From Thermodesulfobacteriota bacterium (GTDB lineage: Bacteria > Desulfobacterota > GWC2-55-46 > JADFVP01), in the NCBI GenBank assembly GCA_046753945.1, contig JBHHUW010000001.1, forward strand, positions 1 through 48,773: DNA of 48,773 nucleotides. The letters are read 5' to 3'. The position numbers and the translations under genes are program-made. Under the pieces are notes generated by a model that saw nothing but the letters and a program-made list of their open reading frames with translations, made no database searches and was not told where the DNA came from. Shown here piece after piece: positions 22,915-39,088 of this stretch; the first letter of the stretch is position 1, and the number at the start of each line of letters is the position of its first letter.

Positions 22915-22988
22915 TGGAGCGGGCGATGGGAATCGAACCCACGTGTGCAGCTTGGGAAGCTGCCATTCTACCATTGAATCACGCCCGC
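22915..22988 (-). tRNA. tRNA-Gly (anticodon CCC), CCA encoded
   Basis: The reverse complement GCGGGCG-TG-ATTCAATGGTAGAAT-G-GCAGC-TTCCCAA-GCTGC-ACAC-GTGGGTTCGATTCCCAT-CGCCCGC-TCCA folds as a cloverleaf with a 7-bp acceptor stem. Confidence 0.9.
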
Positions 22989-25477: not shown

Positions 25478-26599
25478 ATGATACGCATATACGCCTTAAT
25501 AGAGCGAGACTTAAGAAAGTTTATCCGCAACCCATTTGTCGTGGGCGTCTCCATAGCCATGCCCATTGTCTATCTTATAATAATAGGCTCGAGCTTTCAG
25601 GGAGAGCTGAAAAGCCTCTCTGTTGCCGTAGTGGACCAGGATAAGGGCGAATACGGACGGAGGATTCTGGCAAACCTTCGCGCCATTCAGCAAGGTCCTG
25701 CCTCCATACGCGTTATTACAGTAACCGATAAGGCCGAAGCCATGCAAAGCCTTGAGGAGGGTCTCTTTAAGGCCGTTCTACTTATACCACATGATTTTTC
25801 AAGAAAGGCCATACGAGGCGAGACCTCGGAGGTAGGGCTATTCCTTGATAATGTTGAGACCATATCCTCGGCTACAATTGAGAGGGCCGTAAGAGGGGCC
25901 GTTGGGGCGGTATTCGTGGAGTTTACCCCAACAAGGGCCGGTAGTGGAAGAGTCTTTGTACGGGCCATAAATACCTACAAAAAGATAGATTACGACCAGG
26001 GCCTTATTCCCGGCGTTGTTATCATGGCAATATTCATAGGGGCAATGACAACAGGTGTCTTTAACGTAGTCATGGACAGGTTTCTGGGTGTGGACGAGTC
26101 TTACTTCCTTACGCCGCTCACAAGGCTGGATATTGTCGTGGCCCTTGTTATAAGCGGTCTTCTCGTCACTACCGTACTTGCAGTTATCGTCTTATTTCTT
26201 AGCACCCTTACGGCGGGCATGTATCTCTGGGACCTCCTTGCCTTATCGGGTTTTTTCTCTGTTCTTGTTGTCTTTATACTCTCTGCGCTATCTCTTCAGG
26301 GGCTCATGTTCCTTGTCCTGGGCCGTGCCACCCATCCGAGGATTATGGGCATTGTGGGCGGCTTTTTAAATGTCATTTTTTTCTTTCCAAGCGGAGCCAT
26401 ATATCCGGTGGAGAGTTTTCCCGGGTGGCTTCAGGTCTTTGCCGCTGTAAACCCTGAGACATACTCCGTACACGCCCTCAAGGCCCTAATCTTTAAGGGC
26501 TCGGGATTCTGGACCATAACTAATGACCTGCTCTTTCTCGCGGGTTTTTCCTTTGTAACCCTTACGGTGAGCATACTTACCTTTAAACGCACACTTTAA
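25478..26599 (+). CDS. ABC-2 type transporter permease
   Basis: One N-terminal TM segment, a large extracytoplasmic loop, then five C-terminal TM segments. Follows the ATPase gene. Confidence 0.8.
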   Translation: MIRIYALIERDLRKFIRNPFVVGVSIAMPIVYLIIIGSSFQGELKSLSVAVVDQDKGEYGRRILANLRAIQQGPASIRVITVTDKAEAMQSLEEGLFKAVLLIPHDFSRKAIRGETSEVGLFLDNVETISSATIERAVRGAVGAVFVEFTPTRAGSGRVFVRAINTYKKIDYDQGLIPGVVIMAIFIGAMTTGVFNVVMDRFLGVDESYFLTPLTRLDIVVALVISGLLVTTVLAVIVLFLSTLTAGMYLWDLLALSGFFSVLVVFILSALSLQGLMFLVLGRATHPRIMGIVGGFLNVIFFFPSGAIYPVESFPGWLQVFAAVNPETYSVHALKALIFKGSGFWTITNDLLFLAGFSFVTLTVSILTFKRTL

Positions 26600-26646
26600 T
26601 GCGCTCCCCGGCTCTGCGGCAAAGTGTAACTTTTGTAATAATAATC

Positions 26647-26675
26647 TTGACAGTCAGATAAATATATATTAAAGT
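26647..26675 (+). promoter_or_regulatory. sigma70-like promoter upstream of the SAM riboswitch
   Basis: TTGACA, 17-nt spacer, TAAAGT, about 25 nt before the aptamer P1. Confidence 0.5.
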
Positions 26676-26701
26676 TTCAGATACAATTGAATAAATGGAT
26701 A

Positions 26702-26864
26702 TCTTATCCAGAGTGGCGGAGGGACTGGCCCGATGAAACCACAGCAACCGGTGCTATTTAATAGTATGACAGGTGCTAAATCCAGCAGGGTTTTTGAAGA
26801 AAAAAACCCTGAAAGATAAGAAGATTTGCTGGAGACTCTTCTTATCAAAGAAGAGTTTTTTTTT
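26702..26864 (+). promoter_or_regulatory. SAM-I (S-box) riboswitch with terminator/antiterminator expression platform
   Basis: P1 is TCTTATC...GATAAGA. Conserved core: CAGAGTGGCGGAGGGACTGGCCCGATGAAACC...GCAACC...GGTGCTAAATCCAGCA. Terminator ACTCTTCTT-ATCA-AAGAAGAGT plus T9 at 26835-26864. GATAAGAAG (the P1 3' strand) is exactly complementary to CTTCTTATC in the terminator 5' arm. Confidence 0.9.
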
Positions 26865-26965
26865 GCCCTCAAGACTCCATCTGCTGTGCTGATGGAGAGC
26901 CCATGAGGACGAGGTAGTTGTCTTACCAACTATAGACGTAGAGTCACTCTACAGGAGATACTTAT

Positions 26966-28219
26966 ATGAAGTATATGAAAGGATTAAAGTGCAGGGAGTG
27001 CAGTAAGACATATCCGCTGGACCCCATCCATGTCTGCGAGTTATGTTTCGGCCCTCTTGAGGTTGAGTATGATTACGGTAATATAGGCAAGGTCCTTACC
27101 AGAGAACTTATTGAGAGCAGGGCGCCCAACATGTGGAGGTACAGGGAGCTTCTTCCCATAGAAGGCGACCCCACGGTAGGCAACAACTCGGGCTTTACCC
27201 CGCTGGTTAGGGCTTATAATCTGGGAGAGGCCCTGGGTGTAAAAGAGCTCTACCTTAAGAACGATGCCGTTAATTTTCCTACTCTCTCATTTAAGGACCG
27301 CGTAGTATCCGTGGCCATATCAAGGGCAAGAGAGATGGGCTTTGATGTTATTGCCTGCGCCTCTACGGGCAACCTTGCAAATTCCGTTGCCGCCAACTCC
27401 GCGGCATGCGGTCTTAGCAGCTATGTCTTTATCCCCTATGACCTTGAGCAGACCAAGATCACGGGGACCCTTGTCTACGGCACGAACCTCGTGGGCATAA
27501 AGGGCACCTATGACGAGGTGAACAGGCTCTGCAGCGAGATAGGCGGTAAATACGGCTGGGCCTTTGTGAACATCAACATAAGACCCTTTTATGCCGAGGG
27601 CTCAAAGACCTTTGGTTATGAGATAGCCGAGCAGCTTGGCTGGAAACTCCCCCAACATGTAATCGTGCCCATGGCCGGCGGTTCCCTTATTACCAAGATT
27701 GCAAAGGCCTTTAAGGAGTTCAAGAACCTTGGTTTTGTAGATAGTCCTCCGGCCAGGATTTACGGCGCCCAGGCTACGGGCTGTGCCCCTATTGTAACGG
27801 CTGTAAAGGAGAAGACCGAGCTTCTGCGCCCGGTAAAACCTGATACCATTGCCAAATCACTTGCCATAGGCAACCCTGCCGACGGCTTTTACTCGGCAAA
27901 GACCATTCGCGAAAGTAATGGCTGGGCCGAGGACGTATCAGACGATGAAATTGTAGACTCCATGAAGCTCCTTGCCGAGACAGAGGGCATATTCGCCGAG
28001 ACCGCCGGAGGAGTTACCCTCGGTGTAACAAAAAAACTTATTGAGCAGGGCCGCATTCCCCGTGACGAGTCCATAGTGGTCTCCATTACAGGTAATGGCC
28101 TTAAGACCCAGGAGGCTCTCGTTGGAAAAATTGCCGCTCCTCCTGTTATAGAGGCGAGACTTGCCGACTTTGACGACCTTGTAAACGGCGGCAAGGTGAA
28201 AAAAGCCGTGGCAAAGTAG
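26966..28219 (+). CDS. threonine synthase-family PLP enzyme with N-terminal zinc ribbon (candidate O-phosphohomoserine-dependent homocysteine synthase)
   Basis: CRECSKTY...CELCFG zinc ribbon, FPTLSFKDR PLP-lysine motif, and ASTGNLANS. It is the first gene after the SAM-I riboswitch. Confidence 0.8.
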   Translation: MKYMKGLKCRECSKTYPLDPIHVCELCFGPLEVEYDYGNIGKVLTRELIESRAPNMWRYRELLPIEGDPTVGNNSGFTPLVRAYNLGEALGVKELYLKNDAVNFPTLSFKDRVVSVAISRAREMGFDVIACASTGNLANSVAANSAACGLSSYVFIPYDLEQTKITGTLVYGTNLVGIKGTYDEVNRLCSEIGGKYGWAFVNINIRPFYAEGSKTFGYEIAEQLGWKLPQHVIVPMAGGSLITKIAKAFKEFKNLGFVDSPPARIYGAQATGCAPIVTAVKEKTELLRPVKPDTIAKSLAIGNPADGFYSAKTIRESNGWAEDVSDDEIVDSMKLLAETEGIFAETAGGVTLGVTKKLIEQGRIPRDESIVVSITGNGLKTQEALVGKIAAPPVIEARLADFDDLVNGGKVKKAVAK

Positions 28220-28384
28220 CGGCAGGTGAGGGGTAGAGCGGAGCGGAGCAAAAATCCCTTTATGAGGCTTTTATTGTAAAGAGGGGCATTACTCTGGTAT
28301 CATATAAGGATAAACATTAACCATACTACTTCCCCCCCCTTTTTTTTTGTAGTTGAGGGGGGCTTTTTCAAGGAGGCTCTTTAA

Positions 28385-29374
28385 ATGACAGACCATTATA
28401 TAGAAGATAAGACCAATAAGGTGGACCTTGATCTTGAGAAACTCAAGGGTAAGGTTAACTTTAATGACCTTAAGTCCGGCGGGTTCATAAAGCAGAGGCA
28501 AAAGGACCTCTTTACCGTAAGGCTGCGCTGTCCCGGCGGCAGGATGACTACGGAAAAACTTGTGGAGATATCAAAGCTTGCTGAAAAATACAGTAAAGAA
28601 GGCGTGGTGCACTTTAGCTACCGCCAGTCCCTTGAGATATTATATGTGGACTACAAGGACTTTCACGCACTTGTGGCAGAGCTTGAAAAAATTGGCCAGA
28701 AGGTTGCCTCCTGCGGGCCCCGTGTGCGTGTGCCCACTGCCTGCGGCGGCTGCGAGTACAACCCCAATGGTCTTATAGACGCCCAGGCCATGGCCCGTAT
28801 GGTAGATGAAAAGTACTTTGGAACAGAGACCCCTCATAAGTTCAAGACCTCTTTCTCGGGCTGTCCAATTGATTGCTCAAGGACTGTGGAGATGGACCTT
28901 GGCTTTCAGGGCGTTGTAGACCCCGAATGGGTTCAGGACCTCTGCACTGGCTGCACTATCTGCGCCGAGGCCTGTAAAGAGGGGGCCATTGTGGCCCACC
29001 CTGATACAGGGGAACCTATCTTCAATGTAAATAAATGCCTCTACTGCGCCGACTGCATAAGGGCCTGCCCCACGGAGGCCTGGGTCCCCAGGCGTCACGG
29101 TTTTATGGTGCGCGTAGGCGGCAAACATGGCCGCCATCCACTGGAAGGCGTTGAGGTCTGCCGTTTTCTGCCCGAGGAAAAGGTAAGCGATGCCATAGAT
29201 ATGACCGTAAAGTGGTATCAGGCAAATGGTAATAGTTTCGAGAGGATAGGAAGCGTGCTGCAGAGGCTGGGCATGGATGATTACATGAAGCACATGGCCC
29301 CGGTATTTGGCGATATGGCCGTAGTGCCGGAGCATCCGCCAACAGATAGGCCGTTAATCGACCTTGAGGATTGA
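28385..29374 (+). CDS. small sulfite/nitrite reductase-like protein with inserted 2x[4Fe-4S] ferredoxin domain (DsrA/B/AsrC-like architecture)
   Basis: NiR/SiR ferredoxin-like repeat (FTVRLRCPGGRMTTEKL), SGCPIDC (CxxxC sirohaem/FeS motif), CTGCTICAEAC and CLYCADCIRACP ferredoxin motifs. AAGGAGG RBS. Confidence 0.7.
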   Translation: MTDHYIEDKTNKVDLDLEKLKGKVNFNDLKSGGFIKQRQKDLFTVRLRCPGGRMTTEKLVEISKLAEKYSKEGVVHFSYRQSLEILYVDYKDFHALVAELEKIGQKVASCGPRVRVPTACGGCEYNPNGLIDAQAMARMVDEKYFGTETPHKFKTSFSGCPIDCSRTVEMDLGFQGVVDPEWVQDLCTGCTICAEACKEGAIVAHPDTGEPIFNVNKCLYCADCIRACPTEAWVPRRHGFMVRVGGKHGRHPLEGVEVCRFLPEEKVSDAIDMTVKWYQANGNSFERIGSVLQRLGMDDYMKHMAPVFGDMAVVPEHPPTDRPLIDLED

Positions 29375-29475
29375 GAAGGGCGTGGGGGCGCGGACCCAAA
29401 GACATGTGATACATGGGGGAAAAACCCTCTTTAAGGCATAACGGCAAAAAAAAACAATGTAATACAGAGGAAGAT

Positions 29476-29715
29476 ATGAGCGATTTAGAGGCAAAGGAAA
29501 GTGTTGATCTACGCGGGGTGCTCTGCCCCACCAATTTTGTAAAGACAAAGCTAAAGCTTGAGAACATGGAGCCCGGTGAACTCCTTGAGGTAGTACTTGA
29601 TGCCGGTGAGCCCATTGCAAACGTGCCAAAGAGCGTTAAGGAAGAAGGGCATAAGATAGTCAAGGTAACAAAGGATGACGGCTTCTTCAAAATTCTCATA
29701 GAAGTAGCCGGGTAA
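29476..29715 (+). CDS. TusA/SirA-like sulfurtransferase
   Basis: DLRGVLCP active-site Cys-Pro motif near the N-terminus, ~79 aa. Internal ATG with a GAGGAAG RBS preferred over the ORF-track start. Confidence 0.75.
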   Translation: MSDLEAKESVDLRGVLCPTNFVKTKLKLENMEPGELLEVVLDAGEPIANVPKSVKEEGHKIVKVTKDDGFFKILIEVAG

Positions 29716-29743
29716 CCTTAAATCAATTAAGCAGGAGGGGACA

Positions 29744-30028
29744 ATGAGTGTAAAGGTGAGGATACCAACACCGCTACGCAAGATAACAAAGGACCAGGAT
29801 GAGGTCGTGGCCGAGGGAACAAATGTCACCGAGGTTATAGAAGACCTTGAGAAGAACTACCCCGGGCTCAAAGAGAGAATCTGCGAGGACGACGGAAACC
29901 TCCGCCGCTTTGTAAACCTCTATCTCAATGACGAGGACATACGCTTCAAGGATAACCTCAGTACCGCTGTTGCCGATAATGACGAACTCTCCATTATCCC
30001 GGCCATAGCAGGCGGAGGTAAGCCTTGA
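29744..30028 (+). CDS. CysO/ThiS/MoaD-family sulfur-carrier protein with C-terminal GG-GKP extension
   Basis: 94-aa beta-grasp-like protein. RFVNLYLNDEDIRF...LSIIPAIAGGGKP: a Gly-Gly C-terminus followed by extra residues. Confidence 0.8.
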   Translation: MSVKVRIPTPLRKITKDQDEVVAEGTNVTEVIEDLEKNYPGLKERICEDDGNLRRFVNLYLNDEDIRFKDNLSTAVADNDELSIIPAIAGGGKP

Positions 30029-30261
30029 AAAGAAAGGTCTATCTTACTTATCCGCCGGAGAAGGTGAAGGAGCCCCTGCTATGTCAGTGTGTGAAAAAGT
30101 TCAATGTTCTCACTAACGTAAGGCAGGCCTCTGTTACGGATAAGATAGGGATTGTGGCCCTTGAGCTCGAGGGTGAGCCCGGTGAGATAGAAAAAGCCAT
30201 TGATTTTTTTACTGAAAATGGCGTAAAGGTGGAGCCTATTGAGATGAATATTATAGAGTAG
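30025..30261 (+). CDS. stand-alone NIL domain protein
   Basis: 78 aa matching the MetN C-terminal NIL pattern (LTYPPEKVKEPLLCQCVKKFNVLTNVRQASV...GIVALELEGEPGEIEKAIDFFTENGVKVE). TTG start inside a TTGA overlap with the carrier gene stop. Confidence 0.65.
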   Translation: MKRKVYLTYPPEKVKEPLLCQCVKKFNVLTNVRQASVTDKIGIVALELEGEPGEIEKAIDFFTENGVKVEPIEMNIIE

Positions 30262-30404
30262 CCGCATAGAGTAGCCGCGCTCTGCCGTTTATATCCGCCA
30301 CATTTTCGCCCCTTGCCGGGATAAAGCTCTATTTATTTTTGGCAAGGGCCCTCTCTTATATGCCTTAAGTATGCTTTTTCCCTCTAAATTTGCGTAGATT
30401 ATTC

Positions 30405-30431
30405 TTGACAAACGTACTAAGGTATTATAAT
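30405..30431 (+). promoter_or_regulatory. sigma70-like promoter upstream of the cysM-like gene
   Basis: Perfect TTGACA and TATAAT, but only a 15-nt spacer (alternative registers give ATAATT at 16 nt). Confidence 0.45.
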
Positions 30432-30535
30432 TTATAAACTTGATGTTTTTACTAAAGTAATAGAAATACCTTATAAAAAAAGGGGTTTTACATGGAATCT
30501 CTATTATTGGTCCAATATTACGGGTGAGGTCTTTA

Positions 30536-31495
30536 ATGAGTAAGCATAATACATTGCAGAGCATTTCAGAGGAAGACGGACCATCGGCCGGTAAGGCCAG
30601 GTTCTCTGCCCTTGAACTTGTAGGCAATACGCCTCTTGTGAGGATAAACAGGATAACAAAAGACCTTCCCGGCGGTGTTGAGATATACGCCAAACTGGAG
30701 TCCTGCAATCACGGCGGCTCTGTAAAAGACAGGCCGGCGCTGCGCATGATAGAGGACGCGGAAAAGAGCGGGCGCCTTACAAAGGAAAAGATAATACTGG
30801 ACTCCACCTCAGGTAATACGGGCATTGCCTACGCCTGGATAGGCGCTGTAAAGAACCATCGCGTGGAACTCGTAGTCCCTGAGAACGTAAGCTCGGAGCG
30901 AAAGAAAATACTTGACGCCTTTGGAGCCAGGGTGATTTTTTCAAGCCCCTTTGAGGGGTCTGACGGCGCTATCCGCCTTGCCTGGAAACTCTACGTGGAT
31001 AACCCGGAAAAATACTGTAAGCTCGACCAGTATAATAATCCCTCAAACCCCCTTGCCCATTATTACGGCACAGGGCTTGAGATAATAGAGCAGACAAGCG
31101 GCGCAATTACCCACTTTGCTACTACCATTGGAACAGGCGGCACCATAATGGGGACCATGCGAAGGCTGAAAGAATTTAACAACAAGATCAAGGTCATCGC
31201 CATAGAGCCCGATAACCCCATGCATGGACTTGAGGGACTTAAACATATGGAGTCCTCCATAGTGCCGGGTATCTATCATGAGGCCTCACTTGACGGTAAG
31301 GTCCAGGCTTCTACAGAAGAGTCATATGAGATGACCAAGAGGCTCGCAAGAGAAGAGGGTCTGCTTGTGGGCCAGTCATCGGGCGCTGCCATGCTCGGAG
31401 CCCTTGAGGTGGCAAGGGGGCTTAAAAAAGGCATTGTAGTAACTATCTTCCCCGACGGCGGAGATAAATATCTCTCCACACGTCTCTGGGAATAG
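30536..31495 (+). CDS. cysM: cysteine synthase B-like PLP enzyme (CysM/CysK family)
   Basis: GNTPLVRINR, GGSVKDR (PLP lysine), TSGNTGIA, TIGTGGT and QSSGAA motifs. Confidence 0.85.
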   Translation: MSKHNTLQSISEEDGPSAGKARFSALELVGNTPLVRINRITKDLPGGVEIYAKLESCNHGGSVKDRPALRMIEDAEKSGRLTKEKIILDSTSGNTGIAYAWIGAVKNHRVELVVPENVSSERKKILDAFGARVIFSSPFEGSDGAIRLAWKLYVDNPEKYCKLDQYNNPSNPLAHYYGTGLEIIEQTSGAITHFATTIGTGGTIMGTMRRLKEFNNKIKVIAIEPDNPMHGLEGLKHMESSIVPGIYHEASLDGKVQASTEESYEMTKRLAREEGLLVGQSSGAAMLGALEVARGLKKGIVVTIFPDGGDKYLSTRLWE

Positions 31496-31838
31496 GACCG
31501 GGGCGGTCCGGCCGCTGAGAGGGGCTGAGAAAGCGGGCTGAGAGGGGGTCTTCCTGAAGAGCCGGGAGCCGGTGGGATAGAGAAGTCTGCCGGGGTTTTT
31601 GGTTGAGATTGAGTTTTTTTATATATCGTACATTGGGGAGACTTACAGGACAAATTATCAGCTCTTTCTTCTGCCTTAAACTTTTTTTGTTCTGAGATAT
31701 TTCTTTGATGTATTTTTAAACGCTCTTAAAGAGGGTGCTTTTTTTAAGGCCCTTTTCATTTATTACAATAACGGATTTTTTGCTCTTAAATGTGAACAAA
31801 ATCTATTAACTCAAAAAAAACAACTTAAGGGGTAAGTC

Positions 31839-32303
31839 ATGGGTCTGCTCTCAAAGTTCAAGAAAAAAGATAAATTAAGAGTTCCCGAGGACGTCTATAA
31901 CGTTATCATTGAGCATGTAAAAGAGGAGTATCCCCATGAGTGCTGCGGAGTGCTCATAGGCAACGCCATGATGGGAGGAAGAAAAATATTCTACGTTGAG
32001 AAATGTACTAACCTCAACCGCGAGAGGGCCCATGACAGGTACATGATGGACCCCATGGAGATAAACCTGGCGGACAAAGGCGCCCGTTCTCAGTCCCTGG
32101 AGCTGATGGGTTTTTATCACTCCCATCCGGACCACCCGGAGAGCCCCTCGGAGTATGATCGCGAGATGGCCCAGCCGGGCTACTCCTATATAATAGTCTC
32201 CGTTAAAGGCGGCACCGAGGTCACCATGAAGTCCTGGACCTTTGATGAGGAAGATGAACCCTTCAGGGAAGAGCCTCTGGAAATTGCTAAACCGGCTAAG
32301 TAA
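31839..32303 (+). CDS. JAMM/MPN+ metalloprotease (Mec+/HcyD-like)
   Basis: Upstream Glu (HECCG) and an exact HSHPDHPESPSEYD match to HxHx7Sx2D. Confidence 0.85.
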   Translation: MGLLSKFKKKDKLRVPEDVYNVIIEHVKEEYPHECCGVLIGNAMMGGRKIFYVEKCTNLNRERAHDRYMMDPMEINLADKGARSQSLELMGFYHSHPDHPESPSEYDREMAQPGYSYIIVSVKGGTEVTMKSWTFDEEDEPFREEPLEIAKPAK

Positions 32304-32455
32304 AGACCCCGCAAGGGGGCGTGAGGGCAGGGGAGAGGCCCTATACTCTTAAGATTTTTTTACAGGCTAATGCCTTTACTTCTTAGTGCCGGGGTCTTCA
32401 CCGCCGGCCTGCAGAGTAAAGAGGCCTTTTTTTTATGAAGGGGGTTTGAGAGAAG

Positions 32456-33271
32456 ATGGACTTTACAGACGAGCAGATAGAGCGTTACTCAAGACACATA
32501 ATACTACCCGAGGTAGGGGGAAAAGGACAGGCAAAGCTTCTTGAGAGCAAGGTTTTTGTCCTTGGAGCCGGCGGCCTTGGTTCTCCGGCGCTTCTGTACC
32601 TTGCCGCCGCGGGAGTAGGCACTATTGGTTTTGCCGACGGCGATGTAGTGGATGTTAGTAATCTGCAGCGCCAGATAATACACAACAACAATACCGTTGG
32701 CATGCCAAAGGTAAAGAGCGCTCGGCAGAGTATAGAGGCCCTTAACCCCGATGTTGTGGTGCAGCCTTTTGAGGGCCGTCTTGGGACGGAGAATATCCGT
32801 GAGGTGATAAGCGGTTATGACGTGGTCCTTGACGGCTCGGATAATTTTCCTACCCGTTACCTCATGAACGACGCCTCTTTCTTTGAGGGCAAGACCCTTG
32901 TATCAGGCAGTATGTTCAGGTTTGACGGTCAGGTCTCCGTATTTAAGCCCCATGAAGGCCAGCCCTGCTACAGGTGCCTCTACCCGGAGCCTCCGCCCCA
33001 GGGCATGGTGCCCAGCTGTCAGGAGGCCGGGGTCCTTGGCGCCCTTGCCGGCGTAATCGGAGTCCTGCAGGCCGTTGAGGCCATAAAAGAGGTACTCTCT
33101 ATTGGAAAGTCCCTTGCCGGAGAGCTCCTCATATTCGATGCCCTTGGCATGAACTTTCGTAAAGTAAAGGTGCGTAGAGACCCTGAGTGCGCGCTCTGCG
33201 GCGAAGGCGAAAAGGCTACCATCAAGGAACTTGCCCTCTATGAACAGGCCCCCTGCGAGCTCCGTTCCTGA
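32456..33271 (+). CDS. ThiF/MoeB/HesA-family E1-like adenylyltransferase (no rhodanese domain)
   Basis: RYSRHIILPEVG, GAGGLGSP nucleotide loop, DVSNLQRQ, and CYRC...CALC zinc cysteines. 271 aa. Confidence 0.85.
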   Translation: MDFTDEQIERYSRHIILPEVGGKGQAKLLESKVFVLGAGGLGSPALLYLAAAGVGTIGFADGDVVDVSNLQRQIIHNNNTVGMPKVKSARQSIEALNPDVVVQPFEGRLGTENIREVISGYDVVLDGSDNFPTRYLMNDASFFEGKTLVSGSMFRFDGQVSVFKPHEGQPCYRCLYPEPPPQGMVPSCQEAGVLGALAGVIGVLQAVEAIKEVLSIGKSLAGELLIFDALGMNFRKVKVRRDPECALCGEGEKATIKELALYEQAPCELRS

Positions 33272-33291
33272 CCGGGGCCGGGCGCGCTGTA

Positions 33292-34581
33292 TTGTACTTT
33301 AGAGGCAGGCCTTATGCAGGAAGAGGGGGCCAAAGAGAGGCGGGGCAGTCACCTATTTTGAAAAACCGGAATTATTTTAATAACCCCGGGGCATTGAAGA
33401 TAGACCTCATGCTCCGGGGCGCGGCAATAGAAGACCCGGAGGCCAGGGCCAGGGCCTGCGGAGCCACGGGTATAGATATACTCTTGCCGCAGAAGGTCCT
33501 TGTCAATATACCCTGCGAAGACTGGTTTACAGTACGGTCGCCTTACGTTATAAAAAAGGCCGCCGGTAAAAAGGGGTATATCCTTACTAACGGCAGTGAG
33601 AGTGTGGCGGTAAGTATCCTCGATCCGCCGGAGTTTTACACCCGCAAGACCGCTTCAGGCGTACGTTTTGGCGATATCGCCGTAACCCACGGGAGTTACA
33701 CCGTTATAACTCCCGACAAGAGGTGCGGTTTTTTTAAATCCAGCGCCCAGTGCCGCTACTGCGCCGGCAACTTCAGCAGAGACGCCTCCGAGGCTGATGC
33801 GCCCGTCTATACGGTGGAAGAGGTCCTTGAGACCGCAGGGGCCGTATTGAAAGAAAAGGCCTCTGGCATTATCTACCTCTCTATTGGTTTTAGCGAGGGT
33901 GATGACGGTGGAATCAAATTCCTCGAGCCTTACGTAAGGGCCATTAAGTCCCACTTTAACTGCCTTGTAGCCGTAGAGGCCCTGCCTCCGGCAAGTAACG
34001 AGTGGATAGAGAGGGCCTACGCCTTTGGCGTTGACTCCATGCTCTATAACCTGGATATCTTTGACAAGGAACTTTTTTCCGTCATCTGTCCCGGAAGGGC
34101 CGGGCTTATTGGAAGACAGAGGACCCTTGATGCCCTGAAATACGCCGCAGGTATCTTTCCCAGCGGCACAGTGGCCTCGCACCTCATTGTAGGGCTCGAA
34201 CCACCGGGCTCAACGATTCAGGGTATTGATTTTCTAACAGATTCCGGGGTTGTGCCCATACTGCCTATTTTTCGCCCCTCACGTGAGAGGCCCCTTGATG
34301 TTACGGACCTTGAGGCAGAGGTCATTATCCCGGTCTATCAGCACCTTTACAGGACGCTGAAGAAGAAGGGTATAAATTTTAACTGGGTACGTGATATAAG
34401 CATGGTCACTACCCCTGTAGAGGGAGGATACCTGCTTACAGATGAAGATGGCGCGCCGTCGCTCCTTGATAATTTTTACGATTCAAGGCTCGGTATGAAG
34501 GCGGCCTGGGGGCTAAGTGCCCTTCGAAGACGGCTAAGGGTAAAAAAGACGCCAAAGGAGGACCCTCCTGAGGGGTCATAG
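33292..34581 (+). CDS. radical-SAM-like (BioB/ThiH-like TIM-barrel pattern) protein with non-canonical Cys motif; start uncertain (ATG at 33409 possible)
   Basis: CGFFKSSAQCRYCAG (C-x8-C-x2-C, with Ser where the first Cys of CX3CX2C would be). Then SIGFSEGDDGG, NLDIFDKELF and HLIVGLE, resembling radical-SAM strand motifs. Starts 20 nt after thiF-like. Confidence 0.45.
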   Translation: MYFRGRPYAGRGGQREAGQSPILKNRNYFNNPGALKIDLMLRGAAIEDPEARARACGATGIDILLPQKVLVNIPCEDWFTVRSPYVIKKAAGKKGYILTNGSESVAVSILDPPEFYTRKTASGVRFGDIAVTHGSYTVITPDKRCGFFKSSAQCRYCAGNFSRDASEADAPVYTVEEVLETAGAVLKEKASGIIYLSIGFSEGDDGGIKFLEPYVRAIKSHFNCLVAVEALPPASNEWIERAYAFGVDSMLYNLDIFDKELFSVICPGRAGLIGRQRTLDALKYAAGIFPSGTVASHLIVGLEPPGSTIQGIDFLTDSGVVPILPIFRPSRERPLDVTDLEAEVIIPVYQHLYRTLKKKGINFNWVRDISMVTTPVEGGYLLTDEDGAPSLLDNFYDSRLGMKAAWGLSALRRRLRVKKTPKEDPPEGS

Positions 34582-34602
34582 ATGTCCTAAGGGAGTTGTC
34601 CC

Positions 34603-36027
34603 GTGAGAGTTGAGATTGACAGAAGGCCATTATGGGTAATCATCGCCTTAAAGGCGCGAAGGCCCATTTTATTTCTCTTGCTGGGGCTGGGTTTCTTTGC
34701 CTTTCTTCTCCTTCCAGCGCCAGAGGGCCTTGGGGTAGGGGGCATGAGGGCAATTGCCGTCTTTCTGCTGTGCCTCGTGCTCTGGGTCTCAAATGCCGTG
34801 CCCGTGGCCATTACCGGGTTATTTGCCATAGTGCTGGTTCCGCTCCTTGGCATACTGCCAAGGGAGTCCACGTACTCGCTCTTTGGCAATGAGGCAGTGT
34901 TTTTCATACTCGGCGCTTTTATCCTCTCCGGAGCGGTCATGCAGTCCGGGCTCTCGAACAGGGTGGCCCTGCGCCTCATGGAAAAATATGGCGGCTCTCC
35001 AAAGAGGCTTGTTATCAGCATATTCCTCCTTGCCGCCTCATTATCATTCGTAATGAGCGAGCACGCTGTGGCGGCTATGCTTTTTCCCATAGTGCTTGAG
35101 ATATCAAAGTCCCTGAAACTTCGTCCCGGAAAGTCTAATTACGGAAAGCTCCTCTTCTTCGCCCTTGCCTGGGGCTCTGTTATAGGCGGGGTTGGGACCT
35201 TTCTTGGCGGCGCGCGGGTGCCCCTTGCCATGGGCATACTCAAGGAGACTACGGGCGAGAGTTTCAGCTTTATAGGCTATACCGTTGCCGTTGCGCCCCT
35301 TGTTGTAGTCCTTCTTATTGTGGGATACATCGTGCTTACGAGGTTCTTTCCCATTGATATCAAGGGCGTTGAGAGCGCGCGCGAGGTTATAGTGAAGCGC
35401 GCCGGCGCCCTTGGAAAGGTGCGCCCCAGAGAATACGCCGTAGGGTTTATACTCGTAATTACCATCTTCTTCTGGGTAACACTGGGGAAAACCGTTGGCC
35501 TTGCCGCCGTGGCCATGTTATCTGTTACTGCTCTCTTTGTCCTGAAACTCGTAAAGTGGAGGGATATTGAGGAGTATGTCAACTGGGGCATAATTCTCAT
35601 GTACGGAGGCGCCATTATCCTCGGCACGGCCCTTGACAGGAGCGGCGCCGCAAAATGGATGGTGGATTTTATTATGGCTCAGTGGGCAGAGACGCCAATA
35701 ACGGTCTTCGCGCTATTCTCGCTCCTGGCCATACTGCTCACCGAGTCCATGAGCAATGCCGCGGTTATCGCCGTGCTCCTGCCCGTGAGCATAGGCATGG
35801 CTGGAAGGATGAATATGAGCCCCGAGGTCCTTACGTATGCCGTTGCCATTCCCGCGGGGCTGGCCTTTATGCTCCCCATGAGCACACCGGCCAATGCCAT
35901 AGCCGTATCAAGCGATTATATATCCGTGCGGGATATGGTAAAGGGAGGGGTGATTATGTTCATCACCTCGTGGGTTACCTTTAATGTCATGGCCCACTTT
36001 TACTGGCCCCTTATCGGCCTTACGTAG
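34603..36027 (+). CDS. DASS/SLC13-family anion:cation symporter (candidate sulfate permease)
   Basis: About 12 TM segments. Hairpin-tip motifs ESMSNAAVIAVLLP and PMSTPANAIA are typical of the family. Confidence 0.7.
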   Translation: MRVEIDRRPLWVIIALKARRPILFLLLGLGFFAFLLLPAPEGLGVGGMRAIAVFLLCLVLWVSNAVPVAITGLFAIVLVPLLGILPRESTYSLFGNEAVFFILGAFILSGAVMQSGLSNRVALRLMEKYGGSPKRLVISIFLLAASLSFVMSEHAVAAMLFPIVLEISKSLKLRPGKSNYGKLLFFALAWGSVIGGVGTFLGGARVPLAMGILKETTGESFSFIGYTVAVAPLVVVLLIVGYIVLTRFFPIDIKGVESAREVIVKRAGALGKVRPREYAVGFILVITIFFWVTLGKTVGLAAVAMLSVTALFVLKLVKWRDIEEYVNWGIILMYGGAIILGTALDRSGAAKWMVDFIMAQWAETPITVFALFSLLAILLTESMSNAAVIAVLLPVSIGMAGRMNMSPEVLTYAVAIPAGLAFMLPMSTPANAIAVSSDYISVRDMVKGGVIMFITSWVTFNVMAHFYWPLIGLT

Positions 36028-36110
36028 CGGGCCTGCTTAAACAGGCGGGTTTATATAAAATAATTATCATAAACCCGCCATTTTGGTTTACGAACCCATT
36101 TAATTAGGTT

Positions 36111-36584
36111 ATGATGGAGAATAATAAAAAGTTACTCCTCGTTCTATCGCCTCATGTGCACTCTGATAATGCCATTGACTATGCCGTCAAGCGGGCTGCC
36201 GGCGAGGGCCGCGTACTTGTGGCCTTTTTTCTACTCGAGTCTGAGCTTGCCGAGGAGGTCTCCGAAAAATTCTCGGATATCGGATTTACAGGCGACAGAC
36301 CCTCGGCCACTCTATCAGAGTCTCTTATGCGCGAGTACAGGCAGAGGGGCTATGAGGCCCTTGGCAGGGTGCAGGTAAGGGCAATGGAGGAGGGCGTGAT
36401 ATTTGAACCCCTTATGGACGAGGGGCCTTATGTATCCACCATACTTGGGGCCATAAGCGCCCACGATATCGGGCTTACAGTTATACAGGAGAGAAGGGAG
36501 AGGTCCTTTTTTCAGTATTTTAAGAAGGGGCTCCCCCTGCAGGTTAAAGAGATGGCCTCATGTGAGGTCGTCATAGTCAAGTAA
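36111..36584 (+). CDS. universal stress protein-like (adenine-nucleotide alpha-hydrolase fold) protein
   Basis: LLLVLSPHVHSDNAIDYAV...VLVAFFLLE...CEVVIV strand pattern. No clear ATP-binding Gly motif. Confidence 0.45.
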   Translation: MMENNKKLLLVLSPHVHSDNAIDYAVKRAAGEGRVLVAFFLLESELAEEVSEKFSDIGFTGDRPSATLSESLMREYRQRGYEALGRVQVRAMEEGVIFEPLMDEGPYVSTILGAISAHDIGLTVIQERRERSFFQYFKKGLPLQVKEMASCEVVIVK

Positions 36585-36619
36585 CTTAAAATCACCAGGG
36601 TTGAAAGGGAGGACGTAAG

Positions 36620-37324
36620 ATGTCAGCAAAGAAGTGGACGGAAGAAGAACTTAATGAGGTCTCGAAAAGTCTTGAGGACAAGGGGCCGCAGGAGGCCATT
36701 AAATGGGCTGTAGAGAATTTTGATCGCCAGGATATCTCCCTTGCCTGCAGTTTCGGCCTGGAGGACGTAGCCCTTGTGGATATGCTCGTTAAGATAAAGC
36801 CTGATGCCAGGATCTTTTATCTTGATACGAACCTGCTCTTCAAGGAGACCTATGAGGTCATGGAGCGCCTTAATGAGAAGTACGGCATAGCGCCTGAGAA
36901 ATACTGCACAACAATGACCCTTGAGGAGCAGGCCGGGGAGTACGGCGAGGAGCTCTGGACAAAGGACCCTAAAAAGTGCTGCGATATAAGAAAGATCGGC
37001 CCCTTAAGGGATGCCCTCTCCGGGCTCAGCGCCTGGATAACCGGCATAAGAAGGGACCAGGCCCCGGCAAGGGCCAACGCCCCTGTAGTGGGCTGGGACG
37101 CCATGTTCAACCTTGTAAAGATAAACCCCCTGGTTAAGTGGACGACTGAGGATGTCTGGGATTATGTCCGTGCCAATGACGTGCCCTATAACAAGCTCCA
37201 TGACAGGAATTACCCCTCCATCGGCTGCGAGCCATGCACCAATGAGGTAAAGCCCGGCGAGGACCCAAGGGCCGGAAGATGGGCCGGATTTAAGAAGACC
37301 GAGTGCGGACTTCACGACAAATAA
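36620..37324 (+). CDS. cysH: assimilatory adenylylsulfate (APS)/PAPS reductase, Fe-S type
   Basis: KKCCDIRK Cys pair plus SIGCEPCT (CxxC) indicate the [4Fe-4S] APS-reductase subclass. C-terminal KTECGLH catalytic motif. Confidence 0.85.
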   Translation: MSAKKWTEEELNEVSKSLEDKGPQEAIKWAVENFDRQDISLACSFGLEDVALVDMLVKIKPDARIFYLDTNLLFKETYEVMERLNEKYGIAPEKYCTTMTLEEQAGEYGEELWTKDPKKCCDIRKIGPLRDALSGLSAWITGIRRDQAPARANAPVVGWDAMFNLVKINPLVKWTTEDVWDYVRANDVPYNKLHDRNYPSIGCEPCTNEVKPGEDPRAGRWAGFKKTECGLHDK

Positions 37325-37417
37325 ACGTGAAGCCCCTTATAAGGTATATAGCTTAACTTATTGATTTGTATCAATTAAACCTGTTGTGTTATGCAGTTTT
37401 AAGGAGGATTTCTAAAG

Positions 37418-38581
37418 GTGGATTCATTAATCGCGCCACATGGCGGAGTGCTTATAAACAGGGTCGTAGAGGGTAAGGCCCGTCTTAATCTGGAAAAAGC
37501 CTCTCTTGATATGGAGACCAAGGTCCTTAATGAGAGAGAGATCTCAGACCTTGAGATGATAGCCACCGGCGGCTTCAGTCCCCTTGAGGGTTTCATGGGG
37601 CACGGCGATTACCACGCTGTCATGGATACTATGACGCTGAAAAGCGGTCTGCCCTGGACCATACCCGTAACCCTCTCGGCCACCGGGGCCGAGGCGGCTG
37701 CCTTCAAAGAGGGCTCTGATGTGGCCCTCACTAACGAAAACGGAGAACTCCTCGCTGTGCTTCACCTTGAGGAGATTTTCAATCATGATAAGGAAAAAGA
37801 GGCCCTTCGTGTTTACGGCACAGCCGAGGAGGCTCACCCGGGGGTGAAAAACGTCTATGCCATGGGCGAAAAGCTGCTTGGCGGCAAGATATCCATGCTC
37901 GAGCGTACGGAGTACGATAAGTTTAACGAGCACCGCAGAGACCCTCTTGAGACAAGAGAGCTCTTTAAGAAGAACGGCTGGAGACGGGTCGTGGGTTTTC
38001 AGACAAGAAACCCCATACACAGGGCCCATGAGTACATACAGAAGTGCGCCCTGGAGACCGTTGACGGCCTTATGATACACCCCCTTGTTGGTGAGACAAA
38101 GTCCGACGATATACCTGCCGATGTGCGGATGAACTGCTACACAACACTTATGGAAAAGTACTATCCCGCAGACAGGGTAGTGCTCTCCGTATATCCCGCG
38201 GCCATGCGCTACGCCGGTCCCCGTGAGGCCGTCTTTCACGCCCTTATCCGCAAGAACTACGGCTGTACACACTTTATCGTGGGCAGAGACCATGCAGGTG
38301 TAGGCGGTTATTACGGTACCTTTGACGCTCACCTCATCTTCAATAAATTCGAGCCAGAGGCCATCGGCATAGCGCCCATGTTCTTTGACTATACATTCCA
38401 CTGTAAATCCTGCGGCGGCATGGCCTCGTACAAGACCTGTCCCCATGATTCATCAGAGCATATTACCCTCTCGGGCACAAAGGTGCGTGAAATGCTGCGG
38501 GCCGGCACCTGTCCGCCGCCGGAGTTCTCAAGACCTGAGGTGGCAGAGGTGCTTATAAAGTCCATGAAGCAGAGTGATTAA
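37418..38581 (+). CDS. sat: sulfate adenylyltransferase (ATP sulfurylase)
   Basis: [11 protein letters not shown] and VGRDHAGVG motifs, 387 aa. GTG start after AAGGAGG. Confidence 0.9.
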
Positions 38582-38602
38582 AGAGGATATTGGATTAATC
38601 TT

Positions 38603-38636
38603 AAAAAAGACCCCTCTATGAGGGGTCTTTTTTTTT
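38603..38636 (+). terminator. intrinsic terminator after sat (A-run/T-run flanked, potentially bidirectional)
   Basis: AGACCCCT / AGGGGTCT 8-bp stem with a CTATG loop, an A6 run upstream and a T9 run downstream. Confidence 0.85.
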
Positions 38637-39088
38637 GTCTATTACGGCGGTCTTTCCTTTTTAGATGGATAGACACTTTACCTGTAATCCCTTGTCATGG
38701 ATTGATCTGCTCGACTATTTAGCGGGGTTTTACCCCGTGGGGCGCAGTCCTGCCCTGCTCTTCATTGTAGAGCAGGGCCTGAAGAAGAATTTATTTTTTA
38801 CCTGTAAATCTTTTTTTTTGTTATTATAAAGAGACAGGCTCTAAACGCTTTTTCTTTGAGGCCCTACCAGAGCGGTAAGACTCCTGGTGCCTTGAGAAGG
38901 CAAGGAGGCTGGAGGGCCATGGGACAGCAGGGGGCAGGTAGTGTGGGGCAGGTAGTGTGGAGAGTGTAGAGATAACCCTTCACAAAGGTTTTTTGATCCT
39001 GGTCATTCTGCCTCAAACCCCTTGTTGATATTTGCCGGTCCTTTACCATTACAGCCGCACAAAATGATAATCACTCTCTTCAATACTT

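Follow-up and report, generated by a model that had tools for sequence, protein, structure and literature searches.

A conserved gene island of uncultured Thermodesulfobacteriota that probably joins sulfate uptake and reduction to carrier-based homocysteine and cysteine synthesis

Introduction

Bacterial routes in which a protein thiocarboxylate supplies the sulfur of an amino acid have been found singly, for cysteine in Mycobacterium and for homocysteine in Wolinella and Streptomyces. In Wolinella succinogenes, HcyS, HcyD, HcyF, MetY and Sir reportedly make up a protein-thiocarboxylate pathway to methionine, which Krishnamoorthy and Begley are said to have described in 2011. Among the gene neighbourhoods of Iyer, Burroughs & Aravind (2006; PMC1779556), type 4e combines a carrier, an E1 enzyme without a rhodanese domain, SirA, sulfite reductase, ATP sulfurylase and a (phospho)adenosine phosphosulfate ((P)APS) reductase, and the CysO–CysM–Mec+–MoeZ cysteine pathway of Mycobacterium tuberculosis is type 4c/4d. 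A homocysteine pathway of MetM and MetO, together with Mec and MoeZ, has been reported from Streptomyces albulus (Hasebe et al., 2024, as given in secondary sources). Here we analyze a 48,773-nucleotide stretch of DNA (hereafter the window) from a Thermodesulfobacteriota bacterium (assembly GCA_046753945.1, contig JBHHUW010000001.1, positions 1–48,773 of the forward strand), in which a gene island at positions 26,647–38,636 is a composite of Wolinella type 4e, the mycobacterial CysO/CysM type 4c and the Streptomyces MetM/MetO system. What is new is that there is one carrier gene, that a DASS permease takes the place of an ABC transporter, that an adenosine phosphosulfate (APS) kinase is missing and that three extra proteins are conserved, and no such cluster is described in the literature that we searched. 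The island probably serves sulfate uptake, sulfate reduction, carrier loading and the synthesis of both homocysteine and cysteine, by means of three co-evolving modules under layered regulation.

Results

The gene listing and direct reading of the sequence place 13 genes, all on the + strand, between a SAM-I (S-adenosylmethionine, SAM) riboswitch and a terminator (Table 1). A first-pass annotation, made from the sequence letters, had counted fourteen genes, although its own list also names 13. The riboswitch that it placed at the head and the strong terminator that it placed at the end were both recovered, by Rfam and by a terminator search, respectively, and all of its domain calls were reproduced using Pfam, NCBIfam and direct reading. 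Its combination of a missing APS kinase with an Fe-S-type APS reductase likewise held (TIGR02055, with the CC, CxxC and ECGLH motifs; Sat lacks a kinase domain), as did the single carrier gene per cluster, one ThiS-type gene being found in each.

We then looked for relatives of the island by a degenerate-pattern scan of one genome per species, together with a profile of the radical-SAM-like protein. This retrieved 75 loci at 45–89% identity, all of them in metagenome-assembled genomes (MAGs) of uncultured Deltaproteobacteria/Thermodesulfobacteriota. Gene order was determined by tblastn with the 13 window proteins, and a locus was counted for a gene only if its sequence extended to where that gene would lie. 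All 13 genes are found in the order of the window in 25 of the 75 loci. In the downstream block, CysM is present in 55/55 loci, the JAMM peptidase in 56/56, E1 in 64/64, DASS in 64/65 and the USP-like protein in 60/60, with CysH in 53/55 and Sat in 37/44 covered loci; the corresponding figures for the upstream block are 36/39 for MetM, 37/43 for Sir, 38/44 for TusA, 41/46 for ThiS and 42/47 for NIL. In six loci the genes for CysM, JAMM, E1, radical-SAM-like protein, DASS and USP come directly after the housekeeping genes aroA–cmk–ispH, without the metM–sir–tusA–thiS–NIL block and without a riboswitch. The island therefore consists of two blocks that are usually but not always together.

The same genes are also found rearranged. 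In Candidatus Binatia a SAM-I riboswitch is followed by ThiF–MetM–ThiS–CysM–NIL–ThiF–rSAM–DASS–Usp–Sat (rSAM being the radical-SAM-fold protein), and a metagenome contig (L083) carries MetM–ThiS–NIL–PALP–ThiF–[Sir+TusA]–[rSAM+DASS]–CysD–CysN, where brackets denote single fused genes. Two other loci (L086 and L088) have the order MetM–NIL–CysM–JAB–ThiS–rSAM-like–DASS–Usp, and a 6.8-kb contig (L087) carries Rrf2–Sat–rSAM-like–DASS and no carrier genes. Across these arrangements, MetM is 59–69% identical and CysM 39–62% identical (55–62% in all except L083), with identities going down to 28–40% for the rSAM-like protein and to 22–31% for the USP-like protein. Gene fusions among the loci join rSAM to DASS, Sir to TusA and, in one case, ThiS to NIL. 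Because the gene set survives rearrangement (at least four other arrangements) as well as fusion, chance juxtaposition is effectively ruled out. The neighbourhood analysis across genomes thus bears out a functional linkage of the genes, with the window order in 25 loci, the core in more than 55 and rearranged versions elsewhere.

Table 1 Features of the island (coordinates are positions in the window)
Feature	Position	Strand	Details
Sigma-70-like promoter of the riboswitch-metM unit	26647-26675	+	TTGACA-17-TAAAGT; 10/12 matches; 26 nt upstream of aptamer
SAM-I (S-box) riboswitch aptamer	26701-26822	+	RF00162, 86.1 bits, E 4e-19
Expression platform: terminator hairpin and U-run	26831-26866	+	Hairpin 26831-26860, fold -13.7 kcal/mol
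ThrC-fold pyridoxal phosphate (PLP) enzyme with N-terminal Zn ribbon; candidate MetM-type homocysteine synthase	26966-28219	+	
metM-sir boundary: promoter-like element, then GC hairpin and T tail	28274-28368	+	TTGTAA-18-TATCAT with TG; just before sir ribosome-binding site
Small siroheme/[4Fe-4S] sulfite reductase (Sir) with ferredoxin insert, Fsr C-half/Dsr-like	28385-29374	+	329 aa, NIR_SIR and 2x[4Fe-4S]
TusA/SirA sulfur-relay protein	29413-29715	+	75.9 bits; conserved Cys in GVLCPTNF
CysO/HcyS-type ThiS-fold sulfur carrier	29744-30028	+	..PAIAGG, then removable GKP tail; PF02597, 66 bits
Stand-alone NIL domain protein	30025-30261	+	78 aa; PF09383, 54.3 bits vs gathering 24; 4-nt overlap with carrier gene
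cysM promoter TTGACA overlapped by operator-like ACTAAGGTATT repeats	30406-30475	+	Conserved
CysM-like PLP cysteine synthase	30524-31495	+	Probable start ATG 30536
JAMM/Mec+-type Zn peptidase	31839-32303	+	HSHPDHPESPSEYD = HxHx7SxxD, read directly; PF14464 (Prok-JAB), 90.7 bits
ThiF/MoeB-type E1 adenylyltransferase	32456-33271	+	271 aa, two CxxC pairs
Variant radical-SAM-fold protein (rSAM), candidate DASS partner	33358-34581	+	Cx8CxxC and invariant CPGR
DASS (SLC13-type) anion symporter, candidate sulfate importer	34603-36027	+	TIGR00785, 255.8 vs 198.6
USP-like protein	36111-36584	+	Pfam Usp, E 0.0017, 19.3 bits vs gathering 24
Thioredoxin-dependent Fe-S-type APS reductase CysH	36620-37324	+	TIGR02055, 246.5 vs 235.3; KKCCD, GCEPC and TECGLH read
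ATP sulfurylase Sat, no APS-kinase domain	37418-38581	+	NF003166, 562 bits, residues 3-385 of 387
Intrinsic terminator closing the island	38603-38633	+	14 pairs, 6 GC, T-run; strongest of region

The riboswitch match spans the full RF00162 model (positions 1–108), for which the gathering score is 44.4. The 5' arm of the downstream terminator, CUUCUUAUC, is complementary to the 3' strand of P1, GAUAAGAAG, an alternative antiterminator pairing, and the platform reads as a classic SAM-OFF transcription attenuator. In 9 of the 10 loci examined by cmscan, a SAM-I aptamer directly precedes the ThrC-like gene, and in the loci that lack the metM block none is found in front of cysM. A profile built from the aptamers that cmscan had found in related loci identified one in front of the MetM gene in 33 of 35 related loci and nowhere else, and four of the five Binatia-type loci carry SAM-I at the operon head. 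The metM gene of S. albulus is also reported to have a SAM riboswitch in front.

Two further regulatory regions are conserved within the island. The spacer between metM and sir (median 212 nucleotides across loci) retains the promoter-like TTGTAA...TGGTATCAT, and its GC hairpin is retained in close relatives through compensatory changes; the whole element may act as a boundary or attenuator between the two genes. In the spacer between NIL and cysM (median 248 nucleotides), around 34 of 38 loci share a block made up of TTGACA, a –10-like element and, in the relatives, two direct copies of ACTAAGGTATT 28 nucleotides apart. The copies in the window are at 30416–30426 and, with 2 mismatches, at 30451–30461, followed by an inverted copy at 30465–30475. 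In approximately 1 Mb of related loci, 61 of the 68 occurrences of this motif with at most one mismatch fall within 400 nucleotides upstream of cysM, and a search of the window for further sites returned chance-level matches only. The repeats are best read as the putative operator of a transcription factor specific to cysM.

The internal signals pointed out in the first-pass annotation, namely the hairpin at 28332–28368 and the TTGACA promoter at 30406, are therefore genuine in the sense that both are conserved in relatives. Since cysM has its own conserved promoter and the hairpin divides metM from sir, the island is made up of several transcription units. The proposal that the riboswitch heads the whole supercluster is accordingly not upheld for the window, where the switch most probably controls metM and not all 12 kb, its effect further on amounting at most to read-through. 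It does stand for Binatia, in which the genes, cysM and sulfate uptake included, are tightly packed behind the riboswitch, and the picture of a riboswitch-headed operon therefore applies there. A gene for an Rrf2-family regulator (L087, 2677–2988) is found directly upstream of sat–rSAM-like–DASS on that contig, and regulators of this type are candidates for controlling the sulfate-uptake module; there is no Rrf2 gene in the island of the window.

The protein encoded behind the riboswitch shares 59–69% identity with orthologues in Binatia, L083 and L086 that are linked to a riboswitch and adjoin ThiS, and its best solved relatives are threonine synthases. The riboswitch and the lasting adjacency to the carrier gene nevertheless indicate the MetM reaction. 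The carrier itself has its best match in the Protein Data Bank (PDB) to CysO of M. tuberculosis (3DWG_C, E 5.5e-24). Its PAIAGG sequence is invariant in 41 loci and is followed by 0–5 variable residues, so the Gly-Gly is expected to be exposed by proteolysis via the co-encoded JAMM peptidase, as for HcyS and HcyD. In Binatia the carrier gene lies directly between the genes for the ThrC-like protein and CysM.

The E1 enzyme has no rhodanese domain, its ThiF domain covering residues 11–246 of 271. Binatia have a second ThiF-like gene in front of rSAM, which in several loci is shortened to 161–194 aa (L076, 10248–10733; L078, 10254–10757; L082, 9405–9989) and retains only the N-terminal RYSRQ..PE.G region; the shortened protein may be a degenerating or adaptor-like E1. 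The sulfite reductase is most similar, among PDB entries, to the C-terminal half of the F420-dependent sulfite reductase 7NPA (E 4.7e-40). In L083 (3576–5927), a two-half NIR_SIR sulfite reductase of 783 aa has a TusA domain fused at its C-terminus, which supports a direct hand-over of sulfur from Sir to TusA. SirA/TusA was described in 2006 as obligatory in the type 4e neighbourhood and was predicted to replace the rhodanese domain (PMC1779556). The first-pass view that TusA, NIL, rSAM and the USP-like protein have no assigned role in the described pathways is thus incorrect for TusA, and DASS is the more likely partner of rSAM and the USP-like protein.

CysM scores 365 bits against TIGR01138, for which the equivalog cutoff is 394. 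It is 41% identical to CysM of M. tuberculosis, with K240 opposite R220, the residue linked to O-phosphoserine specificity in the mycobacterial enzyme. The cysM gene is directly followed by the JAMM and E1 genes in 55/55 loci and adjoins ThiS in Binatia. Judged from this context, CysM probably uses the same carrier as the MetM-type enzyme, with O-phosphoserine or O-acetylserine as co-substrate, to form cysteine. The longest open reading frames of tusA and cysM begin at 29413 and 30524 without ribosome-binding sites, and the likelier starts are the ATG codons at 29476 and 30536.

The DASS gene is linked to sat and cysH in the window, and to sat or cysDN elsewhere. Bacterial DASS sulfate transporters are known from Rhodobacter capsulatus and others; a review of them (PMC5840216) makes no mention of a radical-SAM or a USP partner. 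In the USP-like protein the ATP motif G-x2-G-x9-G-S/T was found to be absent on reading. Its positional orthologues in Binatia (L080) and L086, which are 22–31% identical, have Pfam Usp matches, and across loci the gene usually overlaps the stop codon of the DASS gene.

The rSAM protein scores 159.6 bits against NF045502 (cutoff 125). Its motif is Cx8CxxC, not the canonical CxxxCxxC, and its score against PF04055 (23.6 bits) is below the gathering score of 29.5. The public annotation begins its open reading frame at 33358 rather than 33292. A profile search against PDB sequences gave nothing at E ≤ 1. Foldseek, run with a structural model (pLDDT 77), matched ThiH, lipoyl synthase (LipA), PylB, HydE, BioB and HydG (E 6e-7 to 1e-5, TM approximately 0.40–0.45, probability 1.0). 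Four cysteines are invariant across two phyla, those of Cx8CxxC and that of CPGR, and with only one extra invariant Cys the protein is expected to have no auxiliary cluster for sulfur insertion. It also has an extra N-terminal domain of 110 residues. An exhaustive profile search collected 382 representatives at E ≤ 1e-30, and ATP-grasp domains are found in the more remote relatives. The literature that we searched yielded nothing on a CX8CX2C motif beyond a generic mention of uncharacterised megaclusters (PMC9477430).

The gene context of rSAM centres on the permease. Its gene immediately precedes DASS in 64 of 65 loci of the window lineage, and does so in all other arrangements with rSAM; the two are fused into one protein of 881 aa in four sequences on five contigs (P0408 and P0511–P0513; for example L083, 5941–8586). 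This fusion may explain the JGI label 'SLC13 transporter' on some stand-alone rSAM homologues. A fusion of JAB with rSAM was seen once, on a 3-kb contig. One locus without rSAM (L078) also lacks DASS and USP and has the carrier genes, and on L087 the rSAM-like gene is found between sat and DASS without carrier genes on the contig. The Cys triad is present in the window protein and is not conserved throughout the orthologous group. It is absent or incomplete in P0372, P0373, P0384, P0404, P0409 and P0427. Three of these keep the usual gene context: homologues without the triad lie directly upstream of DASS in L086 (3613–4818), L088 (2052–3254) and L087 (4226–5593), where the Cys of CPGR is gone too. 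By their sequences, these look like pseudo-enzyme members of the rSAM family.

Based on the adjacency to DASS, the fusion, L078, L087 and the loss of the triad with the context kept, we assigned rSAM and the USP-like protein to the sulfate-uptake module. The two most likely assist or regulate the DASS permease, possibly by sensing SAM or redox state. A role of rSAM as a maturase of Sir was rejected, as rSAM persists in loci without Sir, and sulfur insertion of the LipA/BioB type is disfavoured, as cysteines for an auxiliary cluster are missing.

The NIL protein aligns to the methionine-binding C2 domain of Escherichia coli MetN (residues 271–339). The Asn of the N-I-I motif is conserved, N31 of NIL standing opposite MetN N295, the key Asn of the C2 domain. 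In all arrangements that have NIL, its gene adjoins a carrier or CysM-like gene. The C-terminus is conserved as ..PIE[LM][DN][IV]IE, without Gly-Gly. In one locus (L068, 6207–6722) carrier and NIL form a single in-frame protein of 171 aa (..PAIAGG-AIE-TRKVYLTYP..) with NIL behind the Gly-Gly of the carrier; this single case may be a real fusion or an assembly error. The idea that NIL is a second carrier, with MetO being a NIL protein, was rejected, because NIL has no Gly-Gly end and the published MetO is described as a member of the sulfur-carrier family. NIL/ferredoxin proteins are genetically required in an unrelated homocysteine pathway, that of DUF39. The most economical reading, by analogy with MetN, is that NIL is a small-ligand-sensing partner of CysM, MetM or the carrier.

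The neighbours of the island are unrelated to it and comprise an ABC-2 exporter, lipoprotein genes, obg–proB–proA and proline dehydrogenase. A tRNA gene with no apparent connection to the island (22918–22988, – strand, 66.4 bits) is located 3.7 kb upstream; its anticodon loop reads UUCCCAA, that is, tRNA-Gly CCC. A permissive Rfam scan of positions 26500–38800 returned the SAM aptamer and a sub-threshold Phe-leader match on the terminator only, with no second known riboswitch in the long spacers of the island. The spacer between cysM and the JAMM gene (31496–31838) is 343 nucleotides long, compared with a median of 66 nucleotides across loci, and is purine-rich, with GCTGAGA(G) units recurring in it. 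It yielded no feature, and its sequence is not conserved even in close relatives. A fourteenth gene at this place was rejected on the grounds of its length and lack of conservation.

Discussion

Taken together, the genes suggest the following scheme. DASS would import sulfate, accompanied by the rSAM and USP-like proteins encoded just upstream and just downstream of it. Sat would convert sulfate to APS, the Fe-S enzyme CysH would reduce APS to sulfite and the siroheme enzyme Sir would reduce sulfite to sulfide. The JAMM peptidase would remove the variable tail of the carrier, and the E1 enzyme, lacking a rhodanese domain, would adenylate the C-terminal Gly-Gly of the trimmed carrier. Sulfur from Sir, either direct or as a TusA persulfide, would then turn the acyl-adenylate into a thiocarboxylate. 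From this, the MetM-type enzyme would form homocysteine with O-phosphohomoserine, and CysM would form cysteine with O-phosphoserine or O-acetylserine, the JAMM peptidase also freeing the amino acid from the carrier adduct. At high SAM, the riboswitch would end transcription of metM, and the genes from cysM through JAMM, E1, rSAM, DASS, USP and cysH to sat would be driven by their own conserved promoter under a DNA-binding regulator.

Several points weigh against this scheme. The genes and their motifs, the riboswitch and its platform, and the conservation, rearrangement and fusion of the genes were observed directly; from these we infer all of the enzymatic steps, the substrates, the use of the same carrier by CysM and what NIL, rSAM and the USP-like protein do. 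Sulfate as the substrate of DASS is a candidate assignment from gene context, and the orthology of the ThrC-like gene to the characterised MetM of S. albulus is argued solely from context. The ThrC-like protein passes the NCBI threonine-synthase model TIGR00260 (284.7 vs 167.1), and NCBIfam contains no model for MetM. CysM lacks the regulatory C-terminal tail of the mycobacterial enzyme, has Lys in place of Arg220, and scores 229 bits against enteric CysM and 199 bits against that of M. tuberculosis. Most rSAM members retain Cx8CxxC, CPGR and BioB-like motifs, which speaks for radical-SAM catalysis. Finally, the relatives are all uncultured MAGs or metagenome contigs.

Some of these points, with others, can be assembled into different explanations. 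The broadest is that independent sulfur operons without a shared pathway came to lie side by side fortuitously; the several internal promoters and hairpins, and the six loci in which the metM module is absent beside the cysM module, would fit this, but with the same set occurring in at least five gene orders and three kinds of gene fusion we find it barely credible. It is improbable, too, that the ThrC-like gene encodes a plain threonine synthase, linked to the riboswitch and the cluster as regulation at the homoserine branch point. The TIGR00260 match and the solved threonine synthases closest to it would agree with such a function, as would a cyanobacterial MetM homologue that is reported to act as ThrC and threonine deaminase. 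Against it stand the SAM riboswitch in front of the gene in 33/35 and 4/5 loci, the ThiS carrier as a neighbour through five gene orders at 59–69% identity across lineages, and the record in GapMind that MetM is routinely misannotated as threonine synthase.

A stronger case can be made for two more limited alternatives. Enteric CysM uses free sulfide or thiosulfate, and the CysM of the island could likewise be an ordinary enzyme, held in the island by shared control under sulfur limitation, with the MetM-type enzyme as the only user of the carrier. Its closeness to enteric CysM, a score below the NCBIfam equivalog cutoff yet clearly in the family, the Lys at the R220 position and the missing tail all agree with this, as do the promoter and operator-like repeats that cysM has to itself and the six loci where its module has no carrier gene nearby. 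On the other hand, JAMM and E1 come directly after cysM in all 55 loci, ThiS and CysM are adjacent in Binatia, JAB–ThiS follows cysM in L086 and L088, and the arrangement is that of the published neighbourhood type 4c (PMC1779556). On balance we consider an ordinary CysM unlikely rather than far-fetched, and keep to a carrier shared by both PLP enzymes. A minority chance is likewise given to rSAM being a catalytic enzyme of the thiocarboxylate pathway, as a sulfur partner of E1 or acting on the carrier or the amino acid in the manner of ThiH, BioB or LipA, so that its adjacency to DASS would be mere operon packing. Foldseek places the protein in the ThiH/LipA/PylB/HydE/BioB clade, two phyla share its Cx8CxxC, CPGR, YNLxIFD and IVGLEPPG-type motifs, in the window lineage and Binatia its gene always comes right after one for an E1 or E1-like protein, sometimes with an overlap, and there is the one fusion with JAB. 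This fusion, however, is a singleton on a 3-kb contig, whereas the fusion with DASS recurs on five contigs. The one extra invariant Cys leaves no auxiliary cluster, the triad is lost in several members with the same context, L087 combines Sat, rSAM-like protein and DASS without carrier genes on the contig, and L078 has carrier genes and neither rSAM nor DASS.

We therefore retain the proposal that rSAM and the USP-like protein form an accessory or regulatory module of DASS, and that the free NIL protein is a ligand-sensing partner of CysM or the carrier, as a tentative one, possible but somewhat short of probable when taken as a whole. Neither partnership was found in the literature searched. 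If the proposal is true, rSAM and the USP-like protein could gate sulfate uptake according to SAM or redox state, and NIL would provide feedback at the protein level on top of the SAM riboswitch. All three proteins are uncharacterised and strongly co-evolving, rSAM and the USP-like protein pointing to DASS, and NIL to CysM and the carrier. Two questions thereby become open to testing: the manner in which such bacteria control sulfate uptake, and the function of NIL domains in making homocysteine and cysteine.

More generally, the island suggests that one carrier can supply both amino acids straight from sulfate, in uncultured Thermodesulfobacteriota, Binatia and other lineages. It also offers a concrete annotation signature by which such organisms may be called prototrophs; at present, their ThrC-like gene is annotated as threonine synthase.

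Comparison with known systems

With the Wolinella system and the type 4e neighbourhood, the island has in common a tailed carrier, a JAMM peptidase, an E1 enzyme without rhodanese, TusA, sulfite reductase, ATP sulfurylase and a (P)APS reductase. It differs in having the ThrC-like, MetM-type enzyme instead of the O-acetylhomoserine sulfhydrylase MetY, which is not among its 13 genes, and a DASS permease instead of an ABC sulfate transporter, with no APS kinase. It adds CysM, NIL, the rSAM-fold protein, the USP-like protein and the SAM-I riboswitch. With the CysO system of M. tuberculosis, it shares a CysO-related carrier and a CysM-family enzyme and JAMM peptidase encoded with an E1. Unlike MoeZ, however, this E1 has no rhodanese domain; CysM, at 41% identity, has no C-terminal tail and a Lys at the R220 position, and the carrier has a cleavable tail and is embedded among sulfate-reduction genes.

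The MetM/MetO system of S. albulus, as reported, resembles the island in that a ThrC homologue is encoded with a sulfur-carrier gene behind a SAM riboswitch, and in that JAMM and E1 are shared with the cysteine pathway. In the island, by contrast, both PLP enzymes appear to draw on one carrier gene, the complete route from sulfate is attached together with NIL, rSAM and the USP-like protein, and the phyla are others. The C2/NIL domain is otherwise part of the methionine ABC importer MetNI, which is subject to trans-inhibition by L-methionine. The NIL protein of the island shares the alignment over MetN 271–339 and the Asn of N-I-I, whereas it is stand-alone, without an ATPase, and encoded beside the carrier or CysM.

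The rSAM-fold protein has the radical-SAM TIM-barrel fold and the BioB-like motifs in common with the clade of BioB, LipA, ThiH, HydE and PylB. It is set apart by Cx8CxxC, by the lack of auxiliary cysteines, by the 110-residue N-terminal domain, by being an obligate neighbour or fusion partner of DASS and by the loss of the triad in some members. It can also be likened to uncharacterised families with variant motifs, namely NF045502, TIGR04043 (the MSMEG_0568 family) and the CX8CX2C megaclusters (PMC9477430). The DASS permease, finally, belongs to the same family as the bacterial DASS sulfate transporters (PMC5840216), and shares with them a genomic link to sulfate activation genes.

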